DNA of 64,000 bases from Haliotis rufescens (Eukaryota). The translations under genes were made by a program, and so were the position numbers. Below the pieces are notes generated by a model. That model did not search any database. It saw only the letters and a list, made by a program, of their open reading frames with translations, and was not told the origin of the DNA. The DNA lies in NCBI RefSeq assembly GCF_023055435.1, contig NW_025963779.1, positions 14,384,001 to 14,448,000 on the forward strand, written 5' to 3'. Position 1 is the first letter of the stretch. Each line of letters starts with the position of its first letter. Positions 534-59,729 of this stretch are shown one piece after another.

Positions 534-914
534 TTTGTTTGTTTCGTTGTTGTTTAACACCGCACTCAGCAATATTCCAGCAATAACAATAATCGAGTCT
601 GAACCGGACAATCCAGTGATTGATATCCTGAGCATCATCATTGGGATACAATGACATGCATTAACTAAGTCAGCGAGCGTCACCGCCCGATCCCGTTTGT
701 CTCCTTTTACGGCGAGCATAGTCTCCTTTTACGGCGAGCATAGTCTCCTTTTACGGCGAGCATAGTCGCCTTTTACGGCGAGCATAGTCTCCTTTTACGG
801 CGAGCATAGTCTCCTTTTAAGGCGAGCATAGTCTCCTTTTACGGCGAGCATAGTCTCCTTTTACGGCAAGCGTGAGTTGCTGAAGACCTATTCTGCCCCG
901 AATCTTCACGGGTC
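534..914 (-). mobile_element. SINE-like retroelement family A (non-tRNA head GACCCGTGAAG), full length
   Basis: (GTTT)n tail and CAGCAATATTCCAG core; 5' end ...CTTCACGGGTC at 914; TSD CA(G/A)CTTTATA at 521-530 and 915-924. Confidence 0.85.
699..872. repeat. 22-bp tandem repeat (about 8 copies) inside the family A SINE
   Basis: Unit GTCTCCTTTTACGGCGAGCATA starts at 699, 721, 743 ... 853. Confidence 0.95.
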
Positions 915-11830: not shown

Positions 11831-12064
11831 GTTTGTTGTTTAACACCGCACTCGGTAATAATCCAGCTATATGACGGCAGTCTTAAAACAATCGAGTCTG
11901 GACCACGTAGTCCAGTGATGAGCATCATGAGCATCGATCTACGTAGTTGGGATACGATGACATGCACAGCCAAGTCAGCGAGCCTGACCACCAGAACCCG
12001 TTAGTCGCCTTTTACGGCAAGCATATGTTGCTGAAGACCTTTTCTAACCCGGATCTTCACAGGG
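11831..12064 (-). mobile_element. Family A SINE in the 5'-UTR intron of GPCR A1 (paralogous copies at about 17434-17660, 24590-24845, 31876-32155, 39812-40040)
   Basis: Same tail, core and ...GGATCTTCAC(A)GGG 5' end as the other family A copies; TTCACAT-like flanking repeat. Confidence 0.85.
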
Positions 12065-16952: not shown

Positions 16953-17089
16953 GCCATGGATGTGAAGATTCATGCATGTGATTAAGCCAAAACATTCGTT
17001 ATTCTTCATCAGCAATACAAACCCTAGCTATATGTACGACTAAATCATGCTCTATTCAAATATGAGGACGCTTTTTTTATGACATGTCA

Positions 17090-17212: not shown

Positions 17213-17264
17213 CGGTTCTAGAAAACGACATCTTGCATCCATTGCATCTGAAACAATATTATAT

Positions 17265-17433: not shown

Positions 17434-17830
17434 CTAGCTGTATGACGGCGGTATGCAAGTAATCGAAGCTGGACCACACAATCCAGTAATTGAGATTATG
17501 AGCATCGATCTACGCAGTAGGGATACGATGACATGCATCAACCATGTCAGCGAGCCTGACAACCAGAACCCGTTAGTCGCCTTTTACGACAAACATAGTC
17601 GCCTTTTACGGCAAGCATATGTTGCTGAAGACCTATTCTACCCGTGATTTTTTAACATGGGTTCACATATGCGTTATTATATGCTGATCTCAATTGGTCA
17701 TACTTCAGATCTCGTTACAAGTACCAATAGTAAGGGTTCAGAGTATCACATTTGAGGCATATGAAAAACGAAATGTGTCACTACAAACAATCATATTTGC
17801 GTATTATTTCAGGTGATCACCAAATCCAAT

Positions 17831-20613: not shown

Positions 20614-20848
20614 TACGGAAGCGTAGTAGGGCACGGTGATTTTTTTGTCTAAGTATCTCCTACGTAGGACTTATTATCTCCTACGTAGGACTTATTATCT
20701 TCTACGTAGGACTTATTATCTCCTACGTAGGACTTATTGTCTTCTACGTAGGACTAAGTATGGACTAGAATAACTATCTCCTACGTAAGTCCTACGTAGG
20801 AGATACTTAGACAAAAAAAATTCACCATGGCCCTACTACGCTTCCGTA
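20614..20848. mobile_element. IS3EU-like MITE, copy 2 (235 bp)
   Basis: TACGGAAGCGTAGTAGGG ... CCCTACTACGCTTCCGTA. Confidence 0.75.
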
Positions 20849-26288: not shown

Positions 26289-27742
26289 GGGAAAGCAGCT
26301 GATATGTAAGACACGGGAGGAAAGTTTGGAACATAAATAGAACACTTTGTCATGTGATGGACGCACAACAAACATGTTCAATCATCGGTTAAATGTTTTG
26401 CTGTTCATTCCATGCGTTACGGAACGATGACACTTGGATGAATAAATCGTAACAATTTGTTGATAATCACAACTTGACGGATGGCTGCCGCTATACAACG
26501 ATCAATGAAGAGAGACGTGACTTATTGTGACGTTATACATTTATGATATATGTAACAGCGTCAAGAAGCAACAAGGAGTCGACTTCAGAACCTGCAACGT
26601 TGTCTTCCCTGGACCACCTGAGACTGAGAGATTGTCTGCACTAGATGGGTCCACGACATGAACTGCTATGCCTTTTACTGAGACATCCCCATAAAGCCCT
26701 ATGCTATCTATTTAATTAATCTGTTATCACCTGCTACATCCGCAGTTGACATATTAATAACTTTTAAGGCATACAGCGGCCTGATATAATCTTCAGTAAT
26801 CTCGACTACCCACATGTGCAGTGATGCTATCGCTATATTATACATATATCTCTATATTATACATATATATATATATATGACCCTTGGTGCACTGTGTTAC
26901 ATATATCACATGTAAAATAAGCATTGCTGAAACACATAGACTACTAGTAACCAACTGTTATTCATATGCTGATATTAACACAAGTTGCAGTGGGATCGAA
27001 ACGATGACTGGAAGGATAGGTTGTTTAGATGTATGTATGTGGAAGACAGCACGGATTGTAACATTGTACCACTAATTTACCATTATAACATCGTAACACC
27101 AGTTTACCACGAATCTGATTCTAATAAATGTCATTCATCATCGTGGCAACATATCAGATTCAACTCATGTCAGAACTCAACAGATGTCACTGTATTCCAA
27201 GCATCACTTTACACATACACGTAGAAAAGGATGTTTTGCTATTTATCTCAAATAACATGTTTATCACACCGAGAAGCTGCAATAAATATTCAAAATCGAT
27301 ATCTTCAGGATCACGAATAGCACAACTACAAGTAAATTTGTAAACGGAAGGTCGAGTCTCCCACTCATTTGTCGCTCGACCTAATGTTTTTGCAACATAT
27401 CGATAGTGATGTCATCTCTATTTTATGCACGGATAAGTTGTTATGGATAAGTTGCAAACGTTTCATTCGAGTTATATACCTGCATGTCAATATTTTACTG
27501 TCTTTTGATGTTAAGGTGATCTAAATCTTGTGATTTTCAAATTGGAACATTGTTAGACATATTTCTGCTTCACAATGATATCAGGAAATAAATAAAATCT
27601 CACTCTCTTGTCTCTTGTTATCACATACGTATAAACCAACATCTGTCCATCAAAATAATACACAGACTCGAAACATTTCTCCTTTCATCGACTCTAGTTT
27701 CTATATTTGATATCAAAAGCCACCTTTGTGAGATTATATCTG

Positions 27743-27845
27743 TACGGAAGCGTAGTAGGGCACGGTGAATTGTTTTGTCAAAGTAAGTCCTACGTAGGAG
27801 ATACTTAGACAAAAAAAATCACCATGGCCCTACTACGCTTCCGTA
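27743..27845. mobile_element. IS3EU-like MITE, copy 3 (103 bp, interior collapsed)
   Basis: Both TIRs are present with a single TCCTACGTAGGA between them. Confidence 0.75.
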
Positions 27846-30800
27846 TACGTGTATTCAAAAGCATGCTAATTTCTATTAAGGTCGTCATGCCAAGAAACAA
27901 AATTTTGATTATACATGTATATTCTTACCCACAAGCAGTGTATGGACTAAACGTCCAATCTTATAACAATTTTTTAAAACTCGTTATATATGTATTAGTC
28001 TAAGTTGCTTGGCTAAAACATAAAAGGTGTCGACTGTATTTTATCCTGCAATGAAGTAACAGTTTGAGTTCCACATAATGGACTGACGTTATGGCGCTGT
28101 TCAAATTACCTCCCCAAGATCTAACGTATCCTTGGTAACATTGTTCTTTCATGACCGTGAAAGAAGATGGCGCTATAATATACTTTAACTATGTATATAG
28201 TTCAGGGCAAATCTATACTTTTTTACACCACACATGGGGAAGAGCAAACTATATTTCTAAACTAGATAGTTGGTATTGACAGTAGGTTTATACATATCAC
28301 GAACGTTTAGAACATGCAGATATATTAACAGTTTCCGTGATCCTTTAAATATAACTAAATGTAATATATTATTTTACATATTGCGGTAAGCTGTCATCTG
28401 ATATGCTGACTCCAAGTGTATGATAAACATGTTCATATTTGAGAGTTTTTCCGTCGAAACGAGTTGTTATGTCATGAATTTGGATGCAATCCGGAAAGGG
28501 TGGGGCATGGAACTTCTTCTACCTTTGCATAATGCAAATACTTGTTCTGGTTCATAACATGAAATCNNNNNNNNNNNNNNNNNNNNNNNNNNNNNNNNNN
28601 NNNNNNNNNNNNNNNNNNNNNNNNNNNNNNNNNNNNNNNNNNNNNNNNNNNNNNNNNNNNNNNNNNNNNNNNNNNNNNNNNNNNNNNNNNNNNNNNNNNN
28701 NNNNNNNNNNNNNNNNNNNNNNNNNNNNNNNNNNNNNNNNNNNNNNNNNNNNNNNNNNNNNNNNNNAGGCGTTGCGAAAGGGCGTTTAACGTCGCGTCCA
28801 AGATTATTACACTTATAAATCGTTGTGCAATAAAGGACTGATGACGATTAATACTGCTAGCCCACGGAGATAACCTGCCGCAGTTTAACGGGAACACCCA
28901 ATCAGACACAGTATACTGACTAAGTTGACGGATGTGAAGATTCATGCATGTGATTTAGCCATAACACTCGTTATTCTTCATCAGCAATACAAACCCTAGC
29001 TATATGTACGACTGTACGATATTGTGGTTAAATACACAAATCATGCTCTATTCAAATATGATGACGCTTCTTTTGATAACATGTCAAATACAGGGAACAC
29101 TTCCTGGTTGATAGAAATGTGTTCTTTTCAGTTTACACTGGAAAATATCAACATAACACAGGGAGCATTTAAGCTGGGCATACAACTGCAACGAGAAGGA
29201 GTGTCACGACGTACAGGTAAGTACGGTTCTAGAAAACGACATCTTGCGTCCATTGCATCTGAAACAATATTGTAGTGAGTGAGTGAGTGAGTGAGTGAGT
29301 TGGGTTTAACGCCGCTTTTAACAGTATTCCAGTTATATCACGGCGTGTCAGCTTAATGTGGGAGGAAAGCCCGAAGTGATGCAGGTCTCTGACATTTACC
29401 ACTATGGTGAAACCCACGAGCACGGGTTACGTCAACGTCAATACACACCGCAGGCCAATAACTGGCCAACGCGTTACAAGCCGATAGGGCAGATACTGAG
29501 ATACAACGCAACCTTCTGGCCTTGTGTGACATGACAATGAACAGTTTCCAATGCCTCAACATGTGACTATCCAGCTCCAAAAGTTCATATTTGTATCTAT
29601 GTTATGAAATTTTATATATGGACTTTATTACGTACGATTAATTTACTAAAAATCTATCTGTGCGTTTCTTTTGTTACAGAGTGTATGTGTTACAACCGTA
29701 AAAGGCGACTATGTTTGTCGTAAAAGGCGTTCTGGTGGCCAGTCTCGCTGACTTGGTTGATGCCTGTCATCGTATCCCAAATATGTGGATCGATGCTCAT
29801 GATGTCAATCACTGGACTATCTGGTCCAGACTCGATTATTTACAGACCGCCGTCATATAGCTGGAATATTGCTGAGTGCGGGGTTAAACAAACTAACAAA
29901 CAAACAAACAAACAAACAAACAAACATGTGAGTTGGTGTTAAATGGCTCACATCAACACGACTCACACTATCACTGGTGAGTCTTGGTAGATTACTGTTA
30001 TACGCTTTTGTTACAATACAAAGTTAAGATATATTCCTTTATTAGATAATTTGCAACCGTGTGGTTTTACCAACGTCCGAATCATGCCGGAAAATAACTT
30101 TCCATATATGACGAGCGTTTTGTTACGCACATACACATGTTGATATAATAGTTGGTCAGATTACATTTATTCATTTTTCCTGGAGGAAGTATTAAGTATC
30201 AATAAATAAACCAACTCATTTATGTCGTGGTAGCCCTGAATATTATTATCAGATTATTCTGAAACCTTTTAGATGCTATTAATATTCTTACTTCACAGCA
30301 TGGCTGCGCACGAGCCAAGTTAGACGCTCAAATGAATCGATGACAGGTCCCAACATATGCGATTAAAACACCCATATGTAAAATTTAGCTTCGGTTACTT
30401 TGATTGATTTGTATGTTTGATAATGTCCCGGAGTTTTAGGGTGGTAATCGCACGCGTGTATAACATTGAAGCAAAAAAGTGCATGCTTAAGACATGTTCA
30501 CGTACATGAAAATATATAACGCCAAATGACAGAATAATCAGTTTCGAATATCTGCCGAAGTAGTTTTAGTTGGATGTAAAATGCAAAATAGTGATGGACA
30601 TGGATGGATATGAATGGATAACTGAAAATCAGTAAAGACATGTATCATTAACCCAGACTTCGGATACCTGCAGAGTTTGTTTGTTTGTTTTGTTTCTTTG
30701 TTAGTTGCTTTACGCCGCACTCAGCAATATTCCAGCTATATGACGGCGGTCTGTAAATAATGGAGTCTGGACCAGACAATCCAGTGTCCTGCAAAGTAAA

Positions 30801-31587: not shown

Positions 31588-32324
31588 TGGAATTCTTTGA
31601 TTATGAGAATCCCAAAACGACGTGACCGTGTCAGAAGAACTGTAGCTTTAGTAATATGTGGCTTTAGTAGCTTTAGTAATATGTTTGGTAATCCAAGGGC
31701 ACTAATTTATAGACAAGTATATGCCCCAGATTATTCCCAGATATTATGCATCTTATTGTACATTTTCCTTCCTTAGAAAGGGTGAACAGAGGAAGAAATA
31801 ATTAAGATTTGTATCATATTGCGTGTCATGTTGTTTCCCCGAGGATATTACTTGTGCTTCACATGTGTTTTGGTAGTTTGTTGTTTAACACTGCACTCGG
31901 TAATAATCCAGCTATATGACGGCGGTATGTAAGTAATCGAAGCTGGACCACACAATCCAGTGATGGAGATCATGAGCATCGATCTACGTGGTCGGGATAC
32001 GATGACATGCATCAACCATGTCAGCGAGCCTGACAACCAGAACCCGTTAGTCGCATTTTACGACAAACATAGTCGCCTTTTACGACAAACATAGTCGCCT
32101 TTTACGGCAATCTTATGTTGCTGAGGACCTATTCTTCCCGTGATCTTCACAGGGGTTCACATATGCATCAGTATATGCTTATCTCATTTGGTCAGACTTC
32201 AGATCTCGTTACAAGTACCAATAGTCAGGCTCCAGAGTATCACATTTGAGGCATGTGAAAAACGAAATGTGTCACTACAAACAATCATATTTGCGTATTA
32301 TTTCAGGTGATCACCAAATCCAAT

Positions 32325-33608
32325 ATGGCCTCAAGTTCGCCGGTCATCTTCTCGGATACGACACATTTCGGTGTAGACAACACGACAGCGGAAATGACGT
32401 CATCATTAAACATCAGCGATGAGGAGAAGAACCGTTATCTATCCCACCTTGACGACACGACGTTTCCCTTGATGATACCAGCCGTGGTATATCTGGCCAT
32501 CCTAATGGTTCTGGGTTTTTTCGGAAATATTCTTGTGCTGATCGTGTACATCAAGAAATTCAAACCAAGCCCGACACGTGTGTTTGTGGTGTGTCTGGCT
32601 GTGTTTGACCTCATGACATGCGTCATTTCAATTCCAGGGGAAATCCTGGGCATGAGGTACAGTCACACGTTCGACGACCCAGCCGTGTGTAAAATGATAC
32701 GATTCAACAACACATTCTCCGTGGTGTCCTCAGGATTGACGCTCATAGCTGTTGCTATAGACAGATACAGGAAGATCTGTCGGCCTTTGAACAAACAGAT
32801 CACCATCAGAGTCGCGCGCATCATGGTAGGAATCGCTATGTCCGTATCACTAGTTCTCACCATCCCGACAGTTATAGTCTACGGTAGGAAAACGGTCAAA
32901 ACAGACAAAGAGGAAATAACAGGCTTCGAGTGTTCCTTTGACGACGGGTGGCGCGGTACTCTGTTCCCCGTGGTCTATATAGGAGTCCTATTCCTCATCT
33001 TTTTCGGTTCTCTGAGTGTCCTAGTGGTTATGTACATCCTCATTGGCAGGACTGTGTTTAATCACCGGAGATTTAAATTCCGTCCGGCAAAGGATAAGAA
33101 ACATCACTCTTCGAATTACACAACCGAGACGTCATTTAAAGATGGAACTGAGAATGGGATCGCATTACGTAAAATATCGTCACCCACAGCTACTTGCAAT
33201 GTTTCCAATTCAAACAATGGGACGCTTGATTGTACATGTCTGAATGACACCTCAGCACAACCCAAGACGCGTAAAGAAGACAAATCCTCGAATAGTGTGA
33301 GATCCATAAGAAATAATGCTGCAAAACCAAAAGAAAAATCAAGGCCCAGAGCGTTCAAGACAACGCTTATGTTGTTCATCATCACAGTGGTGTTCATCAT
33401 CAGCTTCTTACCTCATCTGATCCTGATGATAACTCGATTTATCAAATCCGACTTTCTGGACTCTTTACAAGGAGCAGGATTCATGTTGTATAATGTATTC
33501 CTACAATCATACTTCATACAGAGTGCAGTTAACTGCATTGTGTACAGTTTCTGCAATGAAAGATTCAGAAGTGAGTGGAGGAAACTACTCGTTTCTTGTT
33601 ATCGTTGA
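32325..33608 (+). CDS. Class A GPCR, copy A4, 427 aa
   Basis: Intact ORF; shares the 24-bp ICL3 deletion with A3; acceptor at 32306. Confidence 0.95.
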   Translation: MASSSPVIFSDTTHFGVDNTTAEMTSSLNISDEEKNRYLSHLDDTTFPLMIPAVVYLAILMVLGFFGNILVLIVYIKKFKPSPTRVFVVCLAVFDLMTCVISIPGEILGMRYSHTFDDPAVCKMIRFNNTFSVVSSGLTLIAVAIDRYRKICRPLNKQITIRVARIMVGIAMSVSLVLTIPTVIVYGRKTVKTDKEEITGFECSFDDGWRGTLFPVVYIGVLFLIFFGSLSVLVVMYILIGRTVFNHRRFKFRPAKDKKHHSSNYTTETSFKDGTENGIALRKISSPTATCNVSNSNNGTLDCTCLNDTSAQPKTRKEDKSSNSVRSIRNNAAKPKEKSRPRAFKTTLMLFIITVVFIISFLPHLILMITRFIKSDFLDSLQGAGFMLYNVFLQSYFIQSAVNCIVYSFCNERFRSEWRKLLVSCYR

Positions 33609-35107
33609 GGGAAAGCAGCTGATATATAAGACACGAGAGGAAACTTTGGAACATAAATAGAACACTTTGTCATGTGATGGACGCACAACAAACATGTTCA
33701 ATCATCGGTTTAATGTTTTGCTGTTCATTCCATGCGTTACGGAACGATGACACTTGGATGAATAAATCGTAACAATTTGTTGATAATCACAACTTGACGG
33801 ATGGATGCCGCCATACAACGATCAATGAAGAGAGACGTGACTTATTGTGACGTTATACATTTATGATATATGCAACAGCGTCAAGAAGCAACAAGGAGAC
33901 GACTTCAGAACCTGCAACGTTGTCTTCTCTGGACCACCTGAGACTGAGAAATTGTCTGCACTAGATGGGACAACGACAGGAACTGCTATGCCTTGTATTG
34001 ACACATCCCCATAAAGCCCTATGCTATCTAATTAATTTATCTGTTATCACCTGCTACATCCGCAGTTGACATATTAATAACTTTTAAGGCATACAGCGGC
34101 ATGATATAATCTTCAGTAATCTCGACTACCAACATGTGCAGTGATGCTATCTCTATATTATACATATATCTCTATATTATACATTTATCTCTATATTATA
34201 CATATATATATATGACCCTTGGTGCACTTTGTTACATATATCACATGTAAAATAAGCATTGCTGAAACACATGGACTACTAGTAACCAACTGTTCTTCAT
34301 ATGCTGATATTAACACAAGTTGCAGTGGGATCGAAACGATGACTGGAAGGATAGGTTGTTTAGATGTATGTATGTGGAAGACAGCACGGATTGTAAAATT
34401 GTACCACTAGTTTACCATTATAACATCGTAACATCAGTTTACCACGAATCTGATGCTAATAAATGTCATTCATTATCATGCCAACATATCAGATTCAACT
34501 CATGTCAGAACTCAACAGATGTCACTGTATTCCAAGCATCACTTTACACATACACGTAGAAAAGGATGTTTTGCTATTTAGTATCTCATATAACATGTTT
34601 ATCACACCGAGAAACCGCAATAAATATTCAAAATCGATATCTTCAGGATCACGAGTAGCACAGCTACAAGTAAATTTGTAAACGTAAGGTCGAGTCTCCC
34701 ACTCATTTGTCGTTCGACCTAATGTTTTCCAGTAACGACTTCTCGTAAATGCAACATATTGATAGTGATGTCATGTCTATTTTATGCACGGATAATTTGT
34801 TATGGATAAGTTGCAAAAGTTTCAGTCGAGTTATATACGTGCATGTCAATATTTTACTGCCTATTGATGTTAAGGTGATCTAAATCTTGTGATTTTCAAA
34901 TTGAAACATTGTTAGACATATTTCTGCTTCACAATGATATCAGGAAATAAATAAAATCTCACTCTCTTGTCTCTTGTTATCACATACATGTACGTATAAA
35001 CCAACATCTGTCCATTAAAATAATACACAGACTCGAAACGTTTCTCCTTTCATCGACTCTAGTTTCTATATTTGATATCAAAAGCCACCTTTGTGAGATT
35101 ATATCTG

Positions 35108-35503
35108 CGTTGAAGCGTATTAGGGCACGGTGATTTTTTTTGGTCAAAGTATCTCCTACGTAGGACTTATTATCTCCTACGAAGGACTTACTATCTCCTA
35201 CGTAAGACTAACTATCTCCTACGTAGAACTTAGTATGGACTAGAATAACTCTCTCCTACGTGTGAGATAGTAAGACCTATGTAGGAGATAGTAAGTCCTA
35301 GTTAGGAGATACTAAGTCATACGTAGGAGATAGTGATTCTAGGCCATACTAAGTCCTACATGTATGGGGGAGAAAGTAAGTTCTACGTAGGAGATAGTAA
35401 GTCATACGTAGGAGATAATAAGTTCTACGTAGAAGATACTAAGTTCTACGTAGGAGATACTTAGACAAAATAAATTTCACCGTGGCCCGACTACGCTTTC
35501 GTA
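35108..35503. mobile_element. IS3EU-like MITE, copy 4 (about 396 bp)
   Basis: Degenerate TIRs, TATCTG flanks, CCTACGTAGG repeats. Confidence 0.7.
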
Positions 35504-36301
35504 TATCTGTGTATTCAAAAGCATACTTAGTACTATTAAGGTCGTCATGCCAAGAAACAAAATGTTGATTATACATGTATATTCTTACCCACAAGCAGTG
35601 TATGGACTAAACGTCCAATCTTATAACAATTTTTTAAAACTCATAATAAATGTATTAGTCTAAGATGCTTTGCTAAAAGATAAAAGGTGTCGACTGTATT
35701 TTATCCTGCAATGAAGTAACAGTTTGAGTTCCACATAATGGACTGACGTTATGGCGCTGTTCAAACAACCTCCCCATGATCTAACGTATCCTTGGTAACA
35801 TTGTTCTTTCATAACCGTCAAGGAAGATGGCGCTATAATATACTTTACCTACATATATAGTTCAGGGCAAATCTATACTTTATTACACCACACATGGGGA
35901 AGAGCAAACTATATTTCTAAACTAGTTGGTATTGACAGTAGGTTTATACCTATCACCAACGTTTAGAACATGCAGATATATTAACAGTTTGCGTGATCCT
36001 TTAAATATAACTAAATGTAATATATTATTTTACATATTGCGGTATGCTGTCATCTGATATGACTCCAAGTGTATGAAACGTGTTGTTATGTCATGAATTT
36101 GGATGCAATCTGGAAAAAGATGGGGCATGGGTCTTCTTCTACCTTTGCATAATGCGAATACTTGTTCTGGTTCATAACATGAAATCGTGTGGTGGGCGTA
36201 GAGTGGCCATTTTATTATTACAAGATTAAACTCTAGATACAATGTACCATGTCTAATTTCATCGATGTATGTACATGGTACCCCCTAGCTCTAATATCGG
36301 A

Positions 36302-36463
36302 GGGGCGGTCGGGTAGCCTAGTGGTTAAAGCGTTCGCTCGTCACGCCGAAGACCCGGGTTCGATTCCCGACATGGGTACAATGTGTGAAGCCCATTTCTG
36401 GTGTCCCCCGCCGTTTTGCTGGAATATTGCTAAAAGTGGCGTAAAACCAAACTCACTCACTGA
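36302..36463 (+). mobile_element. tRNA-derived SINE family D, recent copy-specific insertion
   Basis: Perfect 13-bp TSD CTCTAATATCGGA (36289-36301, 36464-36476); empty sites in the paralogous units (about 16218, 38878, 44276). Confidence 0.95.
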
Positions 36464-37719: not shown

Positions 37720-40208
37720 GAAACAATGTTATAAATATTTGTCTAATCATAATTGAATAGATTTGGACGAATCATATAAATAGTTTCTTGTATTACAAAA
37801 TTCGAAAGGATAAAATGAAATGTCTGTTAAAACATGTAATACTGTTTTGGCAACAATGACTACTGTCAAATCATGACTAGTGAATGTAGTGATTAACTTA
37901 AAACATCAAAAACAACAAGCATTTTCCTTACCAATCCTCAAAGTGTAGATGAAGACAGCAAATGGATTGATTATGTTATTTAAATTAAGTGACATATATA
38001 ATTAATGATTAGTATATTTAAAAAGCTTGTACAGTATGCAGTTGTTTTGATATCGCTTCCTTTTGATATTGAGTGCGTGGTGTAACCGCATTCTAGTTAC
38101 ATCAAGGCGTATCATCTTAGCCAACTCTTCAGTGGGAGGAAAGGCGGAATTACCATTACCCACCAGCTGTCATGGCGAATCTAGAGGAAAAAGCACAGTC
38201 ACTATCATAAATTAAAAAAAATTAAAAGTCGTCGACTGTATTTTATCCTGCAATGAAGTAACAGTTTGAGTTCCACATTATGAAATGACGTTATGGCGCT
38301 GTTTAAATTACCTCCCCATGATCTAACTTTTCCTTGGTAACATCGTTCTTTCATGACCGTCAAGGAAGATGGCGCTATAATATACTTTAACTATAATAGT
38401 TGAGGGCAGATCTATACTTTATACACCACACATGGGGAAGAGCAAACTATATTTCTTAACTAGATAGTTGGTATTGACAGTAGGTTTATATATAACACCA
38501 ACGTTTAGAGCATGCAGATATATTAACAGTTTGCGTGATCCTTTAAAATATAACTAAATGTAATATATTATTTTACATATTGCGGTAAGCTGTCATCTGA
38601 TTTGCTGACTCCAAGTGTATGATATACATGTTCATATTTGAGATGTTTCCTGTTGAAACGTATTGTAATGTCATGAATTTGGATGCAGTCTGGAAAAGGT
38701 GGGGCATGGGTCTTCTCTTCTACCTTTGCATAATGTAAATACTTGTTCTGGTTCATAACATGAAATCGTGTGGTCGATGTAGAGTGACCATTTTATAATT
38801 ACAAGATTAAACTCTAGATACAATATATCATGTCTAATTTCATCGATGTACAATGTATGTACATGGTTTTCCCTAGGCTCTAATATCGGACCGTTATTGG
38901 GACTGTGTCTACTAGAAACGTTTTGGAGATCTTTGCATCCCCTCCCCCTCCTCACAGAAACATTGGATGTTAGGCTACTTAAATATACCAACACTGACAG
39001 CAAACTAGATTTCACTCCCTACATTCACCTCCCTCGATTTGACCAGAAGCCATGGATGTGATGTGATGTAATGTGATGTGATGTGATGTGATGTGAGCCA
39101 CGGAGATAACATCCCGCAGTTTAACACCAATACCCCACTCAGACACAGTATACTGACTCCAAGTTGACAAGTCCTTGTTTTAGCCCCTTAATGCCCAGCG
39201 CCAGACAGGGTAACAACAAGTACCATATTTTAACGTCTTCTTGTATGACGCGGCCGGGGATCGAATTCCGAACCTTCCGCTCTTCTGGCGGACGCTCTAC
39301 CGCTAAACCACGGATGCGGTCGCCATGGATGTGAAGATTCATGCATGTGATTAAGCCAACACACTCGTATTCTTCATCAGCAATACAAACCCTGGCTATA
39401 TGTACGACTAAATCATGCTCTATTCAAATATGAGGACGCTTTTTTTTAACACATGTCAAGTACAGGGAACACTTCCTGGTTGATAGAAATTCGTTCTTTT
39501 CAGTTTACACATAACACAGGGAGCATTTAAGCTGGGCATACAACTGCAACGAGAAGGATTGTCACGACGTACAGGTAAGTACGGTTCTAGAAAACGACAT
39601 CTTGCATCCATTGCATCTGAAACAATATTATAGTGAGTGAGTTCGGTTTAAAGCCGCTTTTAACAGTTCTCCAGTTATATCGCGGCGTGTCAGCTTAATG
39701 TAGGAGGAAAGCCCGAAGTGATGCAGGTCTCAGACATTTACCACTTCGGTGAAACCCACAAGCACGGGTATGGTGCTGACAAACCTAGAAACATAATCGT
39801 GGCGAACCGGGATCCAGCTGTATGACGGCGGTATGTAAGTAATCGAAGCTGGACCACACAATCCAGTAATTGAGATTATGAGCATCGATCTACCCAGTTG
39901 GGATACGATGACATGCATCAACCATGTCAGCGAGCCTGACAACCAGAACCCGTTAGTCGCCTTTTACGACAAACATAGTCGCCTTTTACGGCAATCTTAT
40001 GTTGCTGAAGACCTATTCTACCCGTCATCTTCACATGGGTTCTCATATGCGTTAGTATATGCTGATCTCAGTTAGTCATACTTCAGATCTCGTTACAAGT
40101 ACCAATATTACGGGTTCAGAGTATCACATTTGACGCATATGAAAAACGAAATATGTCACTACAAACAATCATATTTGCGTATCATTTCAGGTGATCACCA
40201 AATCCAAT

Positions 40209-41516
40209 ATGGCCTCAAGTTCGCCGGTCATCTTCTCGGATACGACACATTTCGGTGTAGACAACACGACAGCGGAAGTGACGTCATCATTAAACATCAG
40301 CGATGAGGAGAAGAACCGTTATCTATCCCACCTTGACGACTCGATGTTTCCCTTGATGATACCAGCCGTGATATATCTGGCCATCCTAATGGTTCTGGGT
40401 ATTTTCGGAAATATTCTTGTGCTGATCGTGTACATCAAGAAATTCAAACCAAGCCCGACCCGTGTGTTTGTTGTGTGTCTGGCTGTGTTTGACCTCATGA
40501 CATGCGTCATTTCAATTCCAGGGGAGATCCTGAGCATGAGGTACAGTCATACGTTCGACTACCCAACCGTGTGTAAAATGATACGATTCAACAGCACATT
40601 CTCCGTGGTGTCCTCAGGATTGACGCTCATAGCTGTTGCTATAGACAGATACAGGAAGATCTGTCGGCCTTTGAACAAACAGATCACCATCAGAGTCGCG
40701 CGCATCATGGTAGGGATCGCTGTGTCCGTATCACTAGTCCTCACCATCCCGACAGTTATAGTCTACGGTAGGAAAACGGTTGAAACAGACAAAGAGGAAA
40801 TAACAGGCTTCGAGTGTTCCTTTGACGACGGGTGGCGCGGTACTCTGTTCCCCGTGGTCTATATAGGAGTCCTATTTCTCATGTTCGTCGGTTCTCTGAG
40901 TGTCCTGGTGGTTATGTACATCCTCATTGGCAGGACTGTGTTTAAACACCGGAGATTTAAATTCCGCCCGGCAAAGGATAAGAAACATCACTCTTCGAAT
41001 TACACAACCGAGACGTCATTTAAAGATGGAACTGAGAATGTGATCGCCTTCAGTAACATATCGTCACCCACAGCTCCTTGCAATGTTTCCAATTCAGACA
41101 ATGGGACGCTTGGTCTTGACGGTTCGTCTGAGACAGGTTGTACATGTCTGAATGATACCTCAGCACAACCAAAGACGCGTAAAGAAGATAAATCCTCGAA
41201 TAGTGTGAGATCAATAAGAAATAATGCTGCAAAACCAAACGAGAAATCAAGGCCCAGAGCGTTGAAAACAACGCTTATGTTGTTCATCATCACAGCGGTG
41301 TTCATCATCAGTTTCTTACCTCATCTGATCCTGTTGATAACTCGATTTATCAAATCCGACTTTCTGGACTCTTTACAAGGAGCAGGATTCATGTTGTATA
41401 ATGTATTCCTACGCTCATTCTTCATACAGAGTGCAGTTAACTGCATTGTGTACAGTTTATGCAATGAAAGATTCAGAAGTGAGTGGAGGAAACTACTCGT
41501 TTCTTGTTATCGTTGA
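40209..41516 (+). CDS. Class A GPCR, copy A5, 435 aa
   Basis: Intact ORF with DRY and NCIVY; acceptor at 40190. Confidence 0.95.
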   Translation: MASSSPVIFSDTTHFGVDNTTAEVTSSLNISDEEKNRYLSHLDDSMFPLMIPAVIYLAILMVLGIFGNILVLIVYIKKFKPSPTRVFVVCLAVFDLMTCVISIPGEILSMRYSHTFDYPTVCKMIRFNSTFSVVSSGLTLIAVAIDRYRKICRPLNKQITIRVARIMVGIAVSVSLVLTIPTVIVYGRKTVETDKEEITGFECSFDDGWRGTLFPVVYIGVLFLMFVGSLSVLVVMYILIGRTVFKHRRFKFRPAKDKKHHSSNYTTETSFKDGTENVIAFSNISSPTAPCNVSNSDNGTLGLDGSSETGCTCLNDTSAQPKTRKEDKSSNSVRSIRNNAAKPNEKSRPRALKTTLMLFIITAVFIISFLPHLILLITRFIKSDFLDSLQGAGFMLYNVFLRSFFIQSAVNCIVYSLCNERFRSEWRKLLVSCYR

Positions 41517-42991
41517 GGGAAAGCAGCTGATATGTAAGACACGAGAGGAAACTTTGGAACATAAATAGAACACTTTGTCATGTGATGGACGCACAACAAA
41601 CATGTTCAATCATCGGTTAAATGTTTTGCTGTTCATTCCATGCGTTACGGAACGATGACACTTGGATGAATAAATCGTAACAATTTGTTGATAATCACAA
41701 CTTGACGGATGGCTGCCGCTATACAACGATCAATGAAGAGAGACGTGACTAATTGTGACGTTATACATGTATGATATATGTAACACCGTCAAGAAGGAAC
41801 AAGGACACGACTTCAGAACCTGCAAAGTTGTCTTCCCTGGACCACCTGAGACTGAGAGATTGTCTGTACTAGATGGGACCACGACAGTTACTTCTATGCC
41901 TTGCCCATAAAGCCCTATGCTATCTATTTAATTTATCTGTTATCACCTGCTACATCCGCAGTTGACATATTAATGACTTTTAAGGCATGCAGCGGCCTGA
42001 TATAATCTTCAGTAATCTCGACTACCAACATGTGCAGTGATGCTACATGTATCTCTATATTATACATATATCTCTATATTATACATACATATATATATAT
42101 TACCCTTGGTGCACTTCGTTACATATATCACATGTAAAATAAGCATTGCTGAAACACATGGACTACTAGTAACCAACTGTTCTTCATATGCTGATATTAA
42201 CACATGTTGCAGTGGGATCGAAACGATGACTGGAAGGATAGGCTGTTTAGATGTATGTATGTGGAAGACAGCACGGATTGTAAAATTGTACCACTAGTTT
42301 ACCATTATAACATCGTAACACCAGTTTACCCCGAATCTGATTCTAATAAATGTCATTCATTATCATGCCAACATATCAGATTCAACTCATGTCAGAACTC
42401 AACAGATGTCACTGTATTCCAAACATCACTTTACACATACACGTAGAAAAGGATGTTTTGATATTTAGTATCTCAAATAACATGTTTATCACACCGAGAA
42501 ACCGCAATAAATATTCAAAATCGATATCTTCAGGATCACGAGTAGCACAGCTACAAGTAAATTTGTAAACGTAAGGTCGAGTCTCCCACTCATTGGTCGC
42601 TCGACCTAATGTTTTCCAGTAACGACTCCTCGTAAATGCATTGATCGTATTGATAGTGATGAGATGACTATTTTATGCACGGATAAGTTGTTATGGATAA
42701 GTTGCAAAAGTTTCAGTCGAGTTATATACGTGCATGTCAATATTTTACTGTATTTTGCTGTTAAGGTGATCTAATTCTTGTGATTTTCAAATTGCAACAT
42801 TGTTAGACATACTTATGCTTCACAATGATATCAGGAAATAAATAAAATCTCACTCTCTTGTCTCTTGTTATCACATACGTATAAACCAAGATCTGTCCAT
42901 TAAAATAATACACAGACTCTAAACATTTCTCCTCCATCGACTCTAGTTTCTATATTTGATATCAAAAGCCACCTTAGTGAGATAATATCTG

Positions 42992-43382
42992 TACGGAAGC
43001 GTAGTAGGGCACGGTGAATTCTTTTGTAAAAGTATCTCCTACGTAGGACTAAGTATGGACTAGAATAACTATCTACTACGTAGGACTTAGTATGGCCTAG
43101 AATTACTATCTCCTACGTAGGACTTAGTATGGACTAGAATAACTATCTCCTACGTATGACTTAGTATCTCCTTACTAGGACTTACTATCTCCTACATAGG
43201 TCTTACTATCTCCCACGTAGGAGAGAGTTATTCTAGTCCATACTAAGTCCTACGTAGGAGATAGTAAGTCATACGTAGGAGATACTTAGTCATACGTAGG
43301 AGATACTACGTCCTACGTAGGACATAGTAAGTCCTACGTAGGAGATACTTAGACAAAACCGTGGCCCTACTACGCTTCCGTA
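42992..43382. mobile_element. IS3EU-like MITE, copy 5 (391 bp, best preserved)
   Basis: TACGG...CCGTA termini with perfect TATCTG TSD at 42986-42991 and 43383-43388. Confidence 0.8.
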
Positions 43383-44444
43383 TATCTGTGTATTCAAAAG
43401 CATACTAAGCACTATTAAGGTCGTCATGCCAAGAAACAAAATGTTGATTATACATGTATATTCTTACCCACAAGCAGTGTATGGACTAAACGTCCAATCT
43501 GATAACAATTTTTTTTAAACTCATGATATATGTATTAGTCTAAGATGCTTGGCTAAAAGATAAAAGGTGTCGACTGTATTTTATCCTGCAATGAAGTAAC
43601 AGTTTGAGTTCCACATAATGGACTGACGTTATGGCGCTGTTCAAACAACCTCCCCAAGATCTAACGTATCCTTGGTAACATTGTTCTTTCATAACCGTCA
43701 AGGAAGATGNNNNNNNNNNNNNNNNNNNNNNNNNNNNNNNNNNNNNNNNNNNNNNNNNNNNNNNNNNNNNNNNNNNNNNNNNNNNNNNNNNNNNNNNNNN
43801 NNNNNNNNNNNNNNNNNNNNNNNNNNNNNNNNNNNNNNNNNNNNNNNNNNNNNNNATTACACCACACATGGGGAAGAGCAAACTATATTTCTAAACTAGA
43901 TAGTTGGTATTGACAGCAGGTTTATACCTATCACAAACGTTTAGAACATGCAGATATATTAACAGTTTGCGTGATCCTTTAAATATAACTAAATGTAATA
44001 TATTATTTTACATATTGCGGTAAGCTGTCATCTGATATGCTGACTCCAAGTGTATGAAACATGTTGTTATGTCATGAATTTGGATGCAATCTGGAAAAGG
44101 TGAGGCATGGGTCTTCTTCTACCTTTGCATAATGCGAATACTTGTTCTGGTTCATAACATGAAATCGTGTGGTCGACGTAGAGTGACCATTTTATTATTA
44201 CAAGATTAAACTCTAGATACAATATATCATGTCTAATTTCATCGATGTACATGTATGTACATGGTTTTCCCTAGGCTCTAATATCGGACTGTTATCGTGA
44301 CTGTGTCTACTAGAAACGTTTTGGAGATCTTTGCATCCCCTCCCCCTCCTCACAGAAACATTGGATGTTAGGCTACTTAAATATACCAACACTGATAGCA
44401 AATTAGATTTCACTCCCTACATGCGATCGATTTGACCAGAAGCA

Positions 44445-51040: not shown

Positions 51041-51581
51041 TCAAATTGATGAAGGTCTTAATTGGTTACATGGACATCCAGTTATACATCCATCTTCCAA
51101 TCGATATCCCGTGGTGTAACCAGTAATACATCCGTTACCATCTTCCAATCGATATCCCGTGGGGTAACCAGTAATACATCCGTTACCATCTTCCAATCGA
51201 CATCCCGTGGTGTAACCAGTAATACATCCGTTACCATCTTCCAATCGATATCCCGTGGTGTAACCAGTTATACATCCGTTACCATCTTCCAATCGACATC
51301 CCGTGGTGTAACCAGTTATACATCCGTTACCATCTTCCAATCGATATCCCGTGGTGTAACCAGTTATACATCCGTTACCATCTTCCAATCGACATCCCGT
51401 GGTGTAACCAGTTATACATCCGTTACCATCTTCCAATCGACATCCCGTGGTGTAACCAGTTATACATCCGTAACCATCTTCCAATCGACATCCCGTGGTG
51501 TAACCAGTTATACATCCGTTACCATCTTCCAATCGATATCCAATTGTGTAACCAGTTAATGTGCCTGAACTCCATTTTATT
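51041..51581 (-). CDS. Candidate terminal coding exon with 16-aa Cys/Gly repeats (LEDGNGCITGYTTGCR)
   Basis: Acceptor ATATATTTTCAG at 51582-51584. The frame is open from unique IKWSSGTLTGYTIGYR through the repeats to unique CITGCPCNQLRPSSI*. An open frame is also expected by chance in a 3n repeat. Confidence 0.3.
51076..51558. repeat. 48-bp minisatellite, about 10 copies
   Basis: Unit GTAACCAGTTATACATCCGTTACCATCTTCCAATCGACATCCCGTGGT. Confidence 0.95.
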
Positions 51582-53323
51582 CTGAAAATATATGATCATT
51601 ATATATTAGCACGACATGATATGAATTATAGGTACATGTAACAATACCACTGCAATGTGCTTAGTCACCTGAGCAATATGAATGCTAGATTTTAACGTCA
51701 CTTTGAACAGCAATTTGCGGAGCTTTATATGACTGGTTATCCGTGCCCGCGTCATCTGAGTATGCGAGTAAGTGAATAATTATTTTATGTCAAGGTCAGC
51801 AATATTTCCTCATCTTTAAAAATGAAAATTCTAAATTCCAATGCTGGATATCATGAGAGAAATGGAATTGTTGAGCATATCCTTTCTTTGGTAGTAGTTA
51901 CCAATATAATATTCCGTATCTTACAAAAACCGAACGCCTCGATATTCCCCAGAATATTGAATGCGTCCCTTACTCAAACTTGCTGTGTAAAGACAACTTG
52001 AAAAGTCCTGACATGATCACGATTAATGTCCCCACCCCCTCCCAATGACAATCCTAACATCAAGGCTTACTTTGGATTCCACGATTAAAGGTTTCCGCTA
52101 GGCAAATGTGCACAACGTTTGACAAAAGTGTTACACGTCACTCAACTGAAATTCTGCTCGAAGCGACACTGCGCGTTGTCACTCTTGCTCCGTGAACCGA
52201 GGAATGAACAATGACATTGAAAGTTAGAACTCTTAACTAGATTTATATGGAATTGCATGAAGTATCTAAACTATAAACTCACAGACATTTACTTGGTAAC
52301 AACTCACGTTTTTTTAACTAACCCTCACGCGCTTCTGACAGTTATTGCAAGGACAAGGGAATGCTGATTTTTTTTAAAAACATTATGAACTTTTCTTTCA
52401 TGACCGGTGGCGACATCAACATAACCGGAAGTAACGTATATTTTCGCGTCAACCACCCCCTTTCCCCAATCAATAAGCCCGACGTCCCCTAAAACGAAAA
52501 CAACCAAAAAAACCCAACAAAGAACAACAACAACAAAACCACCCCACTTGGTGACAGAAGCCGCAGAGTTGTCGAAATTGTTCTCAAATCCCCGTGTTCG
52601 TACTCCGAACTACGATGGAGTCTGATTCGGGGATGGTACTTTAGGAAAAAAGAAACCAATAAGGATACAGAAATCTTTAAAGTTTTTAGAAAAAGTATGA
52701 ACCAGGATGTCCAAAGAGATACCCAGACTCACATTTACATTTATAAAGTGAACATGCGTTATAAGCCGCAGGGTTAAAATGAGATAAATGTGTTATGACG
52801 TCATAGCATTCCAGCATGTCTCATGTCGCCGGCGGCTCCTTGAACTCAAGTACAAAGATTGCTACGGATAAGGTTGGAATATTGTTTTTGCGTTTGCATT
52901 GTCGATCTGAATTGACAATTTCTGATTTTCTATTTTTTCTTGGAGATTTGAAGGGGGAAATGTAACAATTGTTTTCGATGCCCAGACATTTTAACATTTA
53001 AAACCTCCGTTCCAAATGATCTGTCTAGGATATGGAAATGTGATTTCTACGTGATCACGTGGGCGCGAGCCCAACCAACAATACACGTGCAAGATGTGTT
53101 GTGATGTCATTATTTTCTCACTCAATAAATGAAAAAATCAAATGAATACTACAAGGAATCTGTTTTGTCTTTTCCCCATTTTGACTCCAGCTAGAAACAG
53201 GGGTGACATGTAGTAACCATGAAGATTGTTATTGGAACAGTAGTCACAATGGGAAGACACCCTCGCTCTTGTTGGGTAGTCAATACTGTAAAGACAAAAC
53301 ACTTTCATTGTATAGGCCAGGCT

Positions 53324-55159
53324 GCTGACTTGGCCTTCAGCAACCCATGCTTGTCGTAAGAGACGACAAACCGGTTCGGATGGCCAGGATAGCTGACTTG
53401 GCCTTCAGCAACCCATGCGTGTCGTAAGAGACGACAAACCGGTTCGGGTGGCAAGGATCGCTGACTTGGCCTTCAGCAACCCATGCTTGTCGTAAGAGAC
53501 GACAAACCGGTTCGGGTGGCAAGGATCGCTGACTTGGCCTTCAGCAACCCATGCTTGTCGTAAGAGACGACAAACCGGTTCGGATGGCCAGGATCGCTGA
53601 CTTGGCCTTCAGCAACCCATGCTTGTCGTAAGAGACGACAAACCGGTTCGGATGGCCAGGATCGCTGACTTGGCTTTCAGCAACCCATGCTTGTCGTAAG
53701 AGACGACAAACCGGTTCGGGTGGCCAGGATCGCTGACTTGGCCTTCAGCAACCCATGCTTGTCGTAAGAGACGACAAACCGGTTCGGATGGCCAGGATCG
53801 CTGACTTGGCCTTCAGCAACCCATGCTTGTCGTAAGAGACGACAAACCGGTTCGGATGGCCAGGATCGCTGACTTGGCTTTCAGCAACCCATGCTTGTCG
53901 TAAGAGACGACAAACCGGTTCGGATGGCCAGGATCGCTGACTTGGCCTTCAGCAACCCATGCTTGTCGTAAGAGACGACAAACCGGTTCGGATGGCCAGG
54001 ATCGCTGACTTGGCCTTCAGCAACCCATGCTTGTCGTAAGAGACGACAAACCGGTTCGGATGGCCAGGATCGCTGACTTGGCCTTCAGCAACCCATGCTT
54101 GTCGTAAGAGACGACAAACCGGTTCGGATGGCCAGGATCGCTGACTTGGCCTTCAGCAACCCATGCTTGTCGTAAGAGACGACAAACCGGTTCGGATGGC
54201 CAGGATCGCTGACTTGGCTTTCAGCAACCCATGCTTGTCGTAAGAGACGACAAACCGGTTCGGGTGGCCAGGATCGCTGACTTGGCCTTCAGCAACCCAT
54301 GCTTGTCGTAAGAGACGACAAACCGGTTCGGATGGCCAGGATCGCTGACTTGGCCTTCAGCAACCCATGCTTGTCGTAAGAGACGACAAACCGGTTCGGA
54401 TGGCCAGGATCGCTGACTTGGCTTTCAGCAACCCATGCTTGTCGTAAGAGACGACAAACCGGTTCGGATGGCCAGGATCGCTGACTTGGCCTTCAGCAAC
54501 CCATGCTTGTCGTAAGAGACGACAAACCGGTTCGGATGGCCAGGATCGCTGACTTGGCCTTCAGCAACCCATGCTTGTCGTAAGAGACGACAAACCGGTT
54601 CGGATGGCCAGGATCGCTGACTTGGCTTTCAGCAACCCATGCTTGTCGTAAGAGACGACAAACCGGTTCGGATGGCCAGGATCGCTGACTTGGCCTTCAG
54701 CAACCCATGCTTGTCGTAAGAGACGACAAACCGGTTCGGATGGCCAGGATCGCTGACTTGGCCTTCAGCAACCCATGCTTGTCGTAAGAGACGACAAACC
54801 GGTTCGGATGGCCAGGATCGCTGACTTGGCCTTCAGCAACCCATGCTTGTCGTAAGAGACGACAAACCGGTTCGGATGGCCAGGATCGCTGACTTGGCCT
54901 TCAGCAACACATGCTTGTCGTAAGAGACGACAAACCGGTTCGGATGGCCAGGATCGCTGACTTGGCCTTCAGCAACCCATGCTTGTCGTAAGAGACGACA
55001 AACCGGTTCGGATGGCCAGGATCGCTGACTTGGCCTTCAGCAACACATGCTTGTCGTAAGAGACGACAAACCGGTTCGGGTGGCCAGGATCGCTGACTTG
55101 GCCTTCAGCAACCCATGCTTGTCGTAAGAGACGACAAACCGGTTCGGGTGGCCAAGATC
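53324..55159 (+). repeat. 68-bp satellite, 27 copies, derived from the 5' part of a family A SINE
   Basis: Unit GCTGACTTGGCCTTCAGCAACCCATGCTTGTCGTAAGAGACGACAAACCGGTTCGGATGGCCAGGATC; 53324 to 55092 = 26 x 68. It continues into the SINE body and tail (55160-55290). Confidence 0.97.
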
Positions 55160-55599
55160 GCTGATTTGATCGATTACTTGCCATCGTATCACAATTGCTT
55201 ATCACAACTGGATTGTCTTGTCCAGACTCAATTTGTTGCAGACCGCCATTATATAGTTGGAATATTGCGGATTGCGACGTTAAACAATAAGGGAACTAAA
55301 CTTTGTATTGGCATTAACGGCAACGTCATGGTATCACGCAAAAACCGGGTGTCATCACTATTTGATAATGATAATCATTCATAGATACCAGCTCATGATA
55401 CTGTCCAAATCGTTAGATGGACTTTGCTTGTAGTACTGTAACAGATTTCTAATGATTGTGGATTATTTATTTAAATGCCTTTTTTGTCGCTTTTATTTAT
55501 TATACATTGCAAACTGCTTCCGTCAGCCACATAGAATTGTGTCATGGGAAACATATCTATTACAATATATAATAAGTGTACAATAAATATGTAAAAATC

Positions 55600-56017: not shown

Positions 56018-56311
56018 TGTTGTTGGTTGGTTGGTTGGTTGGTTGGTTGGTTGTTGTTGGTTGGTTGGTTGGTTGGTTGGTTGTTTTACGCCGCACACAG
56101 CAATATTCCAGCTATATGACGGCGGTCTGTAAATAATCGAGTCTGGACCAGACAATCCAGCGATCGATATCATGAGCATCGATCCACGCAATTGGGATCG
56201 ATGACATGCATTAGCCAAGTCAGCGAGCCTGATCACCCGATCCCGTTAGTCGCCTTTTACGACAAGCATGGGTTGCTGAGGACCTATTCTACCCCGGAAT
56301 CTTCACGGGTC
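56018..56311 (-). mobile_element. Family A SINE, full length, with (GTTG)n tail
   Basis: 5' end CTTCACGGGTC at 56311; single GTCG hairpin module. Confidence 0.9.
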
Positions 56312-57457: not shown

Positions 57458-57689
57458 GACCTGTCAAGATCCGGGGTAGAATATGTCTTCAGCAACCCAT
57501 ACTTGCCGTAAAAGGCGCCTATTCTTGTCGTAAGGGGCGACTAACGGGATCGAGTGGTCAGGCTCGCTAATTTGGCTGATGTATGTCAAATCCCTGGAAT
57601 GTCTGGTCTAGACTCGATTATTTACAGACTGCCGTCATATCGTTGGAATGTTGCTGAGTGGAGCGTTAAGAAACAAACAAACAAAACAA
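57458..57689 (+). mobile_element. Family A SINE with TSD
   Basis: TSD ACTTGATTCTCTGG at 57445-57458 and 57690-57703; begins GACCTGTCAAGATCCGGGGTAGAA. Confidence 0.9.
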
Positions 57690-57725: not shown

Positions 57726-58087
57726 GGTAAGGTGAGATGAGGTGAGGTGTAATGGGGTTTAACGTCGCAGATTATTGCACTTGTATAGCGACGTGCATGT
57801 ACGTGTGTGTGTTTGTGTGGCTGCTTGTACTAGTCCGGACTGATGCCGGTTTATAGTGCTAGCTCACTGAGATACCATACCGCAGTTTAACATGAATACC
57901 CCACTCAGACATAGTATACTGACTCCGAGCCGACCAGCCCTTGTTTTAGCCCCTTAATGCCGAGCGCCAGACAGGGTAACAACAAGTATCATCTTTTAAC
58001 GTCTTTTGGTATGACGCGGCCGGGGATCGAACCCCAGACCTTCCGCTCTCCGGGCGGACGCTCTACCACTAGACCACGGAGGCGGTC
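57726..58087 (-). mobile_element. SINE family C (tRNA head + Meta/MESC-like domain), full length
   Basis: TSD GGTCGC(C/G)GTGGC at 57714-57725 and 58089-58100. The body GTCATACCAAAAGACGTTAAAAGATGATACTTGTTG...GGCGCTCGGCATTAAGGG resembles the MetaSINE domain. Confidence 0.88.
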
Positions 58088-58828: not shown

Positions 58829-59105
58829 TACTGGTGAATACAAGAACAATATATCAAAGTGATCACTAGTGTACCCTTGTTGGGAAACATCAATGTTCTT
58901 CTAAACATGTGTGTTCATTGCCAGATAGCAAGACTTTAGATATAGGATCCGATCTGTTGATTATGACGTCACGACAGAACTCACTTTCGTTGTCATATGC
59001 TCCTAATAAAGCTGCACGTAATCGTTTAAACTTAGTGTCCCTCAATACAGATTAAACATTATTTCCCAATGTTTAATTAACAAAATGATGAAAATTAGTA
59101 TAAAC

Positions 59106-59382
59106 TTTTCTTTCTTTTTTTCTTTTGTGTTGTTTAACGCCGCACTCGGCAATATTCCAGCTATATGACGGCGGTCTGTAAATAATCGAGTCTGGACCAG
59201 ACAATCCAGTGATTGATATCATGAGCATCGATCGACGCAATTGGGATCGATGACCGTGCATCAACCAAGTCAGTGAGCCTGACCACCCGATCCCGTTAGT
59301 CGCCTTTTACGACAAGCATAGTCGCCTTTTACGACAAGCATGGGTTGCTGAAGACCTGTTCTACCCCGGATCTTCACGGGTC
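59106..59382 (-). mobile_element. Family A SINE, full length, best-preserved copy
   Basis: TSD TAGTAT(A/C)AAC at 59096-59105 and 59383-59392. Confidence 0.92.
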
Positions 59383-59729
59383 TAGTATCAACAATAACGT
59401 TTAAAGTCTTATCTTATTTTATTTTAAGAAACATATTTTGTTGCAGACAGCTGCGGAAGATACTTCCTTAGTAATTGGCTCTGGGGATGTGTAGCTTCGA
59501 GCTTTCACTCTTCGGTGGCATTCCCAAGGATATAAATTTCTGTTCATATGTAGAACAAGTGAATTGATGCTTTAAAATTAAGTAACATTCTCAGCCAAAA
59601 ATCAGTTTCCCTAAATGTACCACAATATTTCAAATGACAGGAACCAACAAGAGGAACGTGCTGCAGAAAGCGGACTTGGCCTCTCATGATGTAGATACTA
59701 TTACTTGTGGTTTCCAAGATTTATCACAC

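Follow-up and report, generated by a model that had tools for sequence, protein, structure and literature searches.

The SINE copy at 59106..59382 (−) in a 64,000-nt stretch of the Haliotis rufescens genome, referred to here as the window, begins with a head for which we predict, from a comparison of 25 families, a 5'-terminal H-type pseudoknot followed by a stem that carries a T-loop-like hairpin. The SINE type is already known; the structured RNA is a new family with a probable nuclease-blocking function. Our leading model, held tentatively and at a little less than an even chance, is that the head would be a new class of exoribonuclease-resistant RNA (xrRNA): by halting Xrn1/Xrn2, it would cause read-through transcripts to be cut back to the precise 5' end of the SINE.

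The element is a real repeat of ~255 bp with more than 22,000 copies: a 27-mer of its tail is found 22,473 times in the genome of 1.33 Gb, and the reversed 27-mer not once. The copy at 59106..59382 is a full-length one of the LP type discussed below, with an A-rich tail behind its core of ~255 bp, and is bounded by a 5' TSD copy at 59383..59392 and a 3' TSD copy at 59096..59105 (both −). Further independent full-length copies lie at 56080..56311 (−; a single hairpin module), 57458..57689 (+) and 534..914 (−; the hairpin module expanded to eight units). It had been claimed that these four insertions begin at the same base and that three of them have clear TSDs, and both observations hold. The first 15 bases at 914, 56311, 57458 and 59382 show 1, 1, 2 and 0 mismatches, respectively (0.04 expected by chance); the TSD at 57458 is 13 bp and exact, those at 914 and 59382 are 10 bp with one mismatch, and none was resolved at 56311. 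Five other head-bearing copies, at 12063 (the SINE at 11834..12063, −, within a segmental duplication), 17651, 24840, 32153 and 40034, have common flanks and are therefore counted as one insertion. The window holds five segmental duplication units of ~4 kb and 90–93% identity (~11700–16200, 16700–21600, 24300–28600, 31600–36300 and 39100–43700), and tandem arrays with periods of ~73, 55 and 96 bp (6105–8177, 3473–4005 and 51078–51558). A 68-bp tandem array of ~27 units (53315–55168) is made from the SINE hairpin module plus the bases that follow it, and ends in the 3' half of the SINE.

The start of the element, as read from genomic insertions, is precise genome-wide: of 82 copies that were located through their tail or encountered incidentally, 53 have their first base at positions 1–3 of the element (34 of the 55 incidental and 19 of the 27 tail-selected copies), and the bases upstream are near random beyond −1. 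A TSD could be resolved in 18 of 56 near-full-length copies; the leader before the first helix, S1 (CCCG), is 1–2 nt long in 13 of the 18 and 3–5 nt in the other five. A CTA shared before the start in loci L002–L030 is an artefact of the query flank and is gone in unbiased sets. Three small-RNA runs from a related species gave 137 reads, almost none of them on the head and with no pile-up at G1, and are uninformative for an RNA of 255 nt. As a separate observation, ~30-nt reads antisense to the SINE tail (window 59179–59209) have one common start in two runs from a related species (63 and 9 molecules) and are piRNA-like. The reported absence of pol III boxes was confirmed: the element lacks a tRNA head, a scan that allowed 1 mismatch detected no A box, and the one loose B-box-like 9-mer lies at element base 150; the same scan found both A and B boxes in a control tRNA-SINE at 58012–58083, and the element does not belong to SINE2. 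Two tRNA-headed SINEs of another family are present in the window, at 36307–36378 (+) and 58012–58083 (−).

We file the element as an LP-SINE, matched by its head, features and length, the comparison with Hdi_LP and Hmi_LP being one of length. The accessible text of Matetovici 2016 (PMC4758252) describes LP-SINEs (Hdi_LP, Hmi_LP, Lsa_2 and Sgl_LP), LP standing for a LINE-derived head, of ~70 nt, that is common to the 5' domain of Nimb-17_LMi, I-3_DR and RTE-9_CPB. Our element has a head homologous to this 5' domain, no tRNA head, TSDs and 3' tandem repeats, and the scallop ‘Nimb-17 homology’ segment in the part of the supplement available to us has, when compared by eye, the same blocks and fold as the head. 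In the same accessible text, the head is assumed to be a promoter in LINEs and SINEs, and a ribozyme is named only as an analogy. An internal Pol II promoter in the DNA, whose start site would set the precise 5' end and leave the RNA fold as a second function, could account for the purine start and for the position of the head at the extreme 5' end of both LINEs and SINEs (PMC4758252, in part), and the dual-function Pr77, cited in that part, offers a precedent. It would, however, leave the stem covariation and the RNA-virus copies described below unexplained, and predicts LINE copies that start at S1, where none of 60 loci does; we consider it improbable.

The predicted fold of the head, which lies on the reverse strand, has two domains. 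In domain 1, S1, the first helix of the pseudoknot, pairs element bases 3–6 (CCCG, 59377..59380) with bases 15–18 (CGGG, 59365..59368). A single-U loop (L1) precedes the 7-nt 5' strand of the second helix, S2 (59369..59375), which pairs with 59350..59356. Loop L3 (59357..59363) ends in AGAAUW, reads UAGAAUA in most copies and UAGAACA here, and is the site, in other families, of insertions of up to ~70 nt or of a hairpin (L081, L452 and L074). In domain 2, P3 (59340..59344 with 59292..59296) is weak in this SINE family, with three Watson-Crick pairs. A 22-nt hairpin module is duplicated; its first copy lies at 59320..59341, and module 2 holds a GUCG-UAARAGG-CGAC hairpin (59299..59313) whose 7-nt loop would fit the T-loop pattern. 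The original prediction showed one hairpin module, which is correct for the RNA it quoted, whereas copy 59382 itself has two. Two modules are present in most genomic copies, the first often with GCCG instead of GUCG, and eight at window 534–914. A 7-bp helix, GGGAUCG/CGAUCCC, around a small hairpin (window 59244–59294, −) could compete with P3 and is possibly a decayed tRNA-like body.

Covariation across families argues for domain 1. In a structure-blind MAFFT alignment of 19 families, 86.6% of its cells pair, against 41–53% in slid controls; the covariation score is 0.651, against 0.211 when shuffled (0 of 500), and double-sided changes are seen in 9 of 11 pairs, those of S2 showing them in 7 of 7. 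Among 25 family representatives, which were chosen by eye and of which two were mis-parsed by the script and kept, the partners are family-specific for S1 (3 of 2000 permutations) and for P3 (0 of 2000), values that are not strict probabilities because some of the representatives are related. P3 is only 59% paired at fixed columns across 22 full heads, a figure that is low because its register shifts. The invariance of the hairpin is circular and no evidence, since the homologues were collected with the hairpin as bait. It should be noted that MFE folding is blind to the pseudoknot. No Rfam family matched the head, either in the window or in 26 loci.

The idea that the head is a conserved RNA with a pseudoknot, and that it is linked to the 5' ends of LINEs, is therefore upheld by the covariation across families and by a LINE of this genome that has the same head. 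The proposed stem GAAGAUC/GGUCUUC covaries strongly and the GUCG/CGAC hairpin is present. Two other proposed pairings fail. For the closing helix CCCGU/ACGGG, pairing across 22 families amounts to 48%, as against 85% for S1 across the 22 full heads, and the helix is not family-specific (1605 of 2000 permutations reach the observed value); the pseudoknot GGGU/ACCC is 67% and 20% paired in the 22 families and is not family-specific either (959 of 2000 reach the observed value). The GGGUU/AACCC pairing cited from the copy at 12050 lends no support, as the copy at 12050–12063 reads AACAU, not AACCC.

The head does not have the make-up of an HDV-like ribozyme. In the mapping onto P2-P3-P1.1-P4-J4/2 that had been suggested, two helices have swapped partners and the P3/L3/P1.1 core is missing. 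An HDV descriptor written from established knowledge (3-bp P3, 7-nt L3, P1.1 CC with GG) matches 0 of 47 SINE heads, compared with 25 of 30 loci of a LINE that has a true ribozyme. Where an HDV ribozyme has a 7-bp P1 with the G1 pair and a nested double pseudoknot, the head has an S1 of ~3–6 bp and a single H-type pseudoknot; and where the HDV fold has an unpaired catalytic C in J4/2, the C of CUAA, previously read as a free junction, pairs within the hairpin in 21 of 22 rows. CUAA itself reads CCAA in most LINE copies.

The LINE in question (L478 and L516) is decayed and ~5.8 kb long; its domains are an endonuclease, an RT and an RNase H, and a zinc knuckle is matched weakly. Directly before the head motif stands a minimal HDV-like ribozyme of 58 nt, and it is this ribozyme that satisfies the full descriptor in the 25 loci mentioned above. 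In L478, it matches RF02682 at 30.5 bits (E 0.017), below the gathering score of 44; this is the sole Rfam ribozyme match, and it lies upstream of the motif. A 33-mer of the ribozyme occurs 579 times. The family it leads is of the I-group (probably Nimb), with several hundred copies (L478 1571–1627, −; L516; G000:C1 ~28.31 Mb), and the I-group/Nimb clade is absent from the ribozyme-bearing clades listed in PMC5786205. A search of the genome for further head-bearing families returned mostly decayed SINE copies and this LINE.

Where the LINE copies begin is informative. Two sets of 30 loci were picked by sequence inside the motif, at least two of the 60 being redundant (L581 repeats L486; L604 and L605 share flanks); 56 (28 + 28) start at G1 of the ribozyme, the other four start within the ribozyme, and none starts at S1. 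This argues against cutting, or a start at a fixed distance, at S1, and fits the halting of an exonuclease; that the motif cuts RNA or fixes a start site by itself is unlikely. Moreover, the motif remains intact in the LINE, 3 of 34 loci having exchanged an A-U pair for C-G, a compensatory change, although no LINE copy is trimmed to it, and it therefore appears to have a job beyond making 5' ends. The 3' hairpin of the LINE in L516 is similar to that of the SINE tail (59139..59172, −), which is likely to be an RT recognition signal, so an I-group LINE related to L516 is likely to be the partner of the SINE, judging from sequence resemblance.

The same data bear on the possibility that the head is cut just 5' of S1, either as a self-cleaving ribozyme (HDV-like or new) or as the target of an endonuclease, for example as a substrate of RNase P. 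The precise G start would suit such a cut, a G1-U wobble is possible in some copies, domain 1 corresponds to the P1/P2 frame of an HDV-like ribozyme devoid of P3/L3, and S2 of the SINE with its flanking GU and AAUA is closely similar to P2 of the LINE ribozyme. It is a matter of speculation that the head pseudoknot descends from such a P1/P2 frame. The head, however, lacks the catalytic core and has no Rfam ribozyme match, the reading of CUAA as CCAA in most LINE copies and the absence of LINE loci beginning at the motif count against it, and a cut would strip the LINE of its upstream ribozyme and sever linear viral genomes. Since cleavage would remove a ribozyme that is in fact found upstream of the motif, the head is taken not to be 5'-cleaving, and we regard cutting at this site as very improbable.

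A 17-mer from the head is found in at least 120 metagenome stretches, mostly short repeats of animal hosts that belong to several unrelated families. Unrelated SINE-like families of other animals also start at S1, and the HDV descriptor was found upstream of 0 of 119 SINE-like heads in other animals. In one animal SINE family (L076, L092, L104 and L143), a tRNA-derived region comes immediately after the head, an arrangement also seen in the scallop MESC SINEs, and one metagenome repeat has two complete motifs in tandem (L084, ~480–620). Seven GTDB matches (L449–L455) were considered as bacterial and rejected; they are situated either at the ends of contigs or in stretches of microsatellites and intron-like DNA, and are read as eukaryotic contamination. 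These seven representative genomes thus hold eukaryotic retroposon DNA, in two cases at the very start of a long contig, through contamination or chimeric contig ends.

The motif also occurs in viruses. The 17-mer finds five viral contigs and looser patterns seven; a model built from 16 non-viral families scores the seven viral copies at 37.6–73.5 bits and the other loci, of 82, at no more than 26.7, nearly all of the latter sharing only a 15-mer. A model scan of 100 further viral loci gave no match, and the looser patterns gave no copies beyond these seven among the matches listed, with 20 loci and the short loci lying outside the model scan. In all six RNA-virus contigs (five viruses) the motif is in the sense 3' UTR, ~7–101 nt past the last stop. 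The hosts of the motif are a toti-like RdRp virus (L239), two tombus-like RdRp viruses (L259 and L571), a virus with a tetravirus-type capsid and RdRP_3 (L213/L569/L576), and a virus with an S-domain coat (L199) that has the motif twice in tandem, the contig ending within the second copy. The seventh copy is intergenic in a DNA virus of 212,482 bp, close to an NAD-dependent ligase (L229); we take this size to match that of invertebrate iridescent virus 6. A chimeric assembly is ruled out for L213/L569 by the same junction in two data sets; the copies in L199 and L571 may stem from one. Protein searches for relatives of three of the motif-bearing viruses found only those same viruses, and a 1217-aa viral ORF in L199 (255–3905, −) has no Pfam match.

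The viral copies bring in the main rival to the xrRNA model, namely that the fold is a cap-independent translation element or one that binds ribosomes or host factors. Such an element would serve the uncapped LINE RNA and the viral RNAs, in the manner of a 3' CITE, and would dock SINE RNA near nascent reverse transcriptase, the SINE 5' end being made in another way. Selection has maintained the motif immediately downstream of a ribozyme whose product is an uncapped RNA, the motif stands in the 3' UTRs of tombus-like and toti-like viruses, its primary sequence is common across hosts, which suggests a conserved ligand, and translation is reported to benefit from HDV-like 5' ends (PMC6765202, in the part accessible). 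On the other hand, the precise starts of non-coding SINEs are left unexplained, and the distance from the motif to the first AUG varies, being ~500 nt in L516, ~150 nt in L229 and, in LINEs covered by the accessible part of PMC4758252, ~70 to 400 nt. We rate this explanation as rather unlikely.

The xrRNA model would run as follows. Read-through of host Pol II units would yield the SINE transcripts. Once such a transcript had been decapped, cleaved or, as part of an intron, debranched, Xrn1/Xrn2 would digest its 5' flank as far as the base of S1 and stop there, and an I-group LINE, recognizing the 3' hairpin, would reverse-transcribe what was left. Xrn1/2 do not attack 5'-OH RNA ends. The product of the LINE ribozyme would have such an end and, not being an Xrn substrate, would escape trimming; the viral copies of the motif would shield a 3'-terminal fragment. 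There are thus three observations to be accommodated: precise SINE starts without promoter boxes or a ribozyme, an untrimmed LINE, and tolerance of the motif in viral 3' UTRs. A halted exonuclease fits all three; cleavage at S1 fails on the LINE and on the viral copies, and a fixed internal start site fails on the LINE and is silent on the viral copies. Stalling of RT as the source of the precise 5' end can be ruled out by reasoning, as it would truncate at the 3' side of the structure. Against the model, L3 tolerates long insertions, unlike the tight linker of class 3 xrRNAs, P3 is weak in this SINE family, the leader reaches 3–5 nt in five of the 18 TSD-resolved copies, and the motif survives in a LINE whose copies are never trimmed to it, a point in favour of a role in translation or binding. 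The original prediction had allowed for a protective RNA as a fallback, and it is this part that becomes the leading model here, the ribozyme-like part not being borne out.

Taken more broadly, we tentatively suggest, as a possibility clearly short of an even chance, that the head represents a so far undescribed type of RNA which blocks nucleases and is exchanged as a module among LINEs, SINEs, RNA viruses and a DNA virus; that SINEs with this head need neither promoter nor ribozyme and would be carved by host 5'-to-3' exonucleases from read-through transcripts; and that the pseudoknot may descend from an HDV-like frame minus its catalytic core. With a fold backed by covariation and present in RNA-only replicons, the question is reducible to a one-gel experiment. 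If Xrn1/Xrn2 are blocked, this would be a cellular xrRNA present more than 22,000 times; promoters and ribozymes would be joined by a third means of setting the 5' end of a retrotransposon, and a compact new tool for stabilizing RNA would be at hand. Whatever the mechanism, the structured RNA constitutes a new family, as it has no match in Rfam and is common to retrotransposons of animals and to viruses unrelated to one another. In the open-access literature, in so far as its text was accessible and with Repbase, Dfam and most subscription papers outside its scope, we found no description of the fold, of the viral copies or of an xrRNA in a retrotransposon.

Four known systems invite comparison. 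With the LP-SINEs, as set out in the accessible part of PMC4758252, the element has in common the ~70-nt LINE-type head in place of a tRNA, the TSDs and the tandem-repeat tail, and the Haliotis LP-SINEs are of the same length, 255 bp; that part of the account gives no structure, viral copies or upstream ribozyme. The bipartite non-autonomous LINEs and RTE-derived SINE bodies of Kojima 2018 (PMC5786205) are likewise short, with a LINE-type 5' end and a LINE-type 3' end, whereas the head described here is a mobile module common to several clades and viruses, and the body is unrelated to the LINE 5' UTR examined. The HDV-like ribozymes of non-LTR retrotransposons (R2, L1Tc, RTE; Rfam RF02682) resemble the head in their 5'-terminal position, precise G start and order of helices, S1/S2 corresponding roughly to P1/P2, but the head lacks P3, L3, P1.1 and a free catalytic C, and in one LINE a true HDV-like ribozyme and the head motif stand back to back as separate modules. 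Finally, the class 3 xrRNAs of Tombusviridae and Solemoviridae, according to the accessible portions of PMC12397905 and PMC6299227, stop Xrn1 at the base of the first helix by means of a pseudoknot and T-loop docking; the feature that defines xrRNAs is a ring around the 5' end. Like class 3 xrRNAs, the head has a short first helix at the exact 5' boundary, the loop of which is paired downstream as a pseudoknot; both have a T-loop element (T-loop-like, from its predicted fold, in the head), and both are found in 3' UTRs or ahead of ORFs. In class 3, as described there, the T-loop is inside the apical loop and is accompanied by a J1/2 bulge and an AGY motif, features that the head does not show, its apical loop consisting of a U and seven paired nucleotides, its L3 being expandable, and its T-loop-like hairpin forming a separate 3' domain. 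A further difference is that the head has no match in Rfam.
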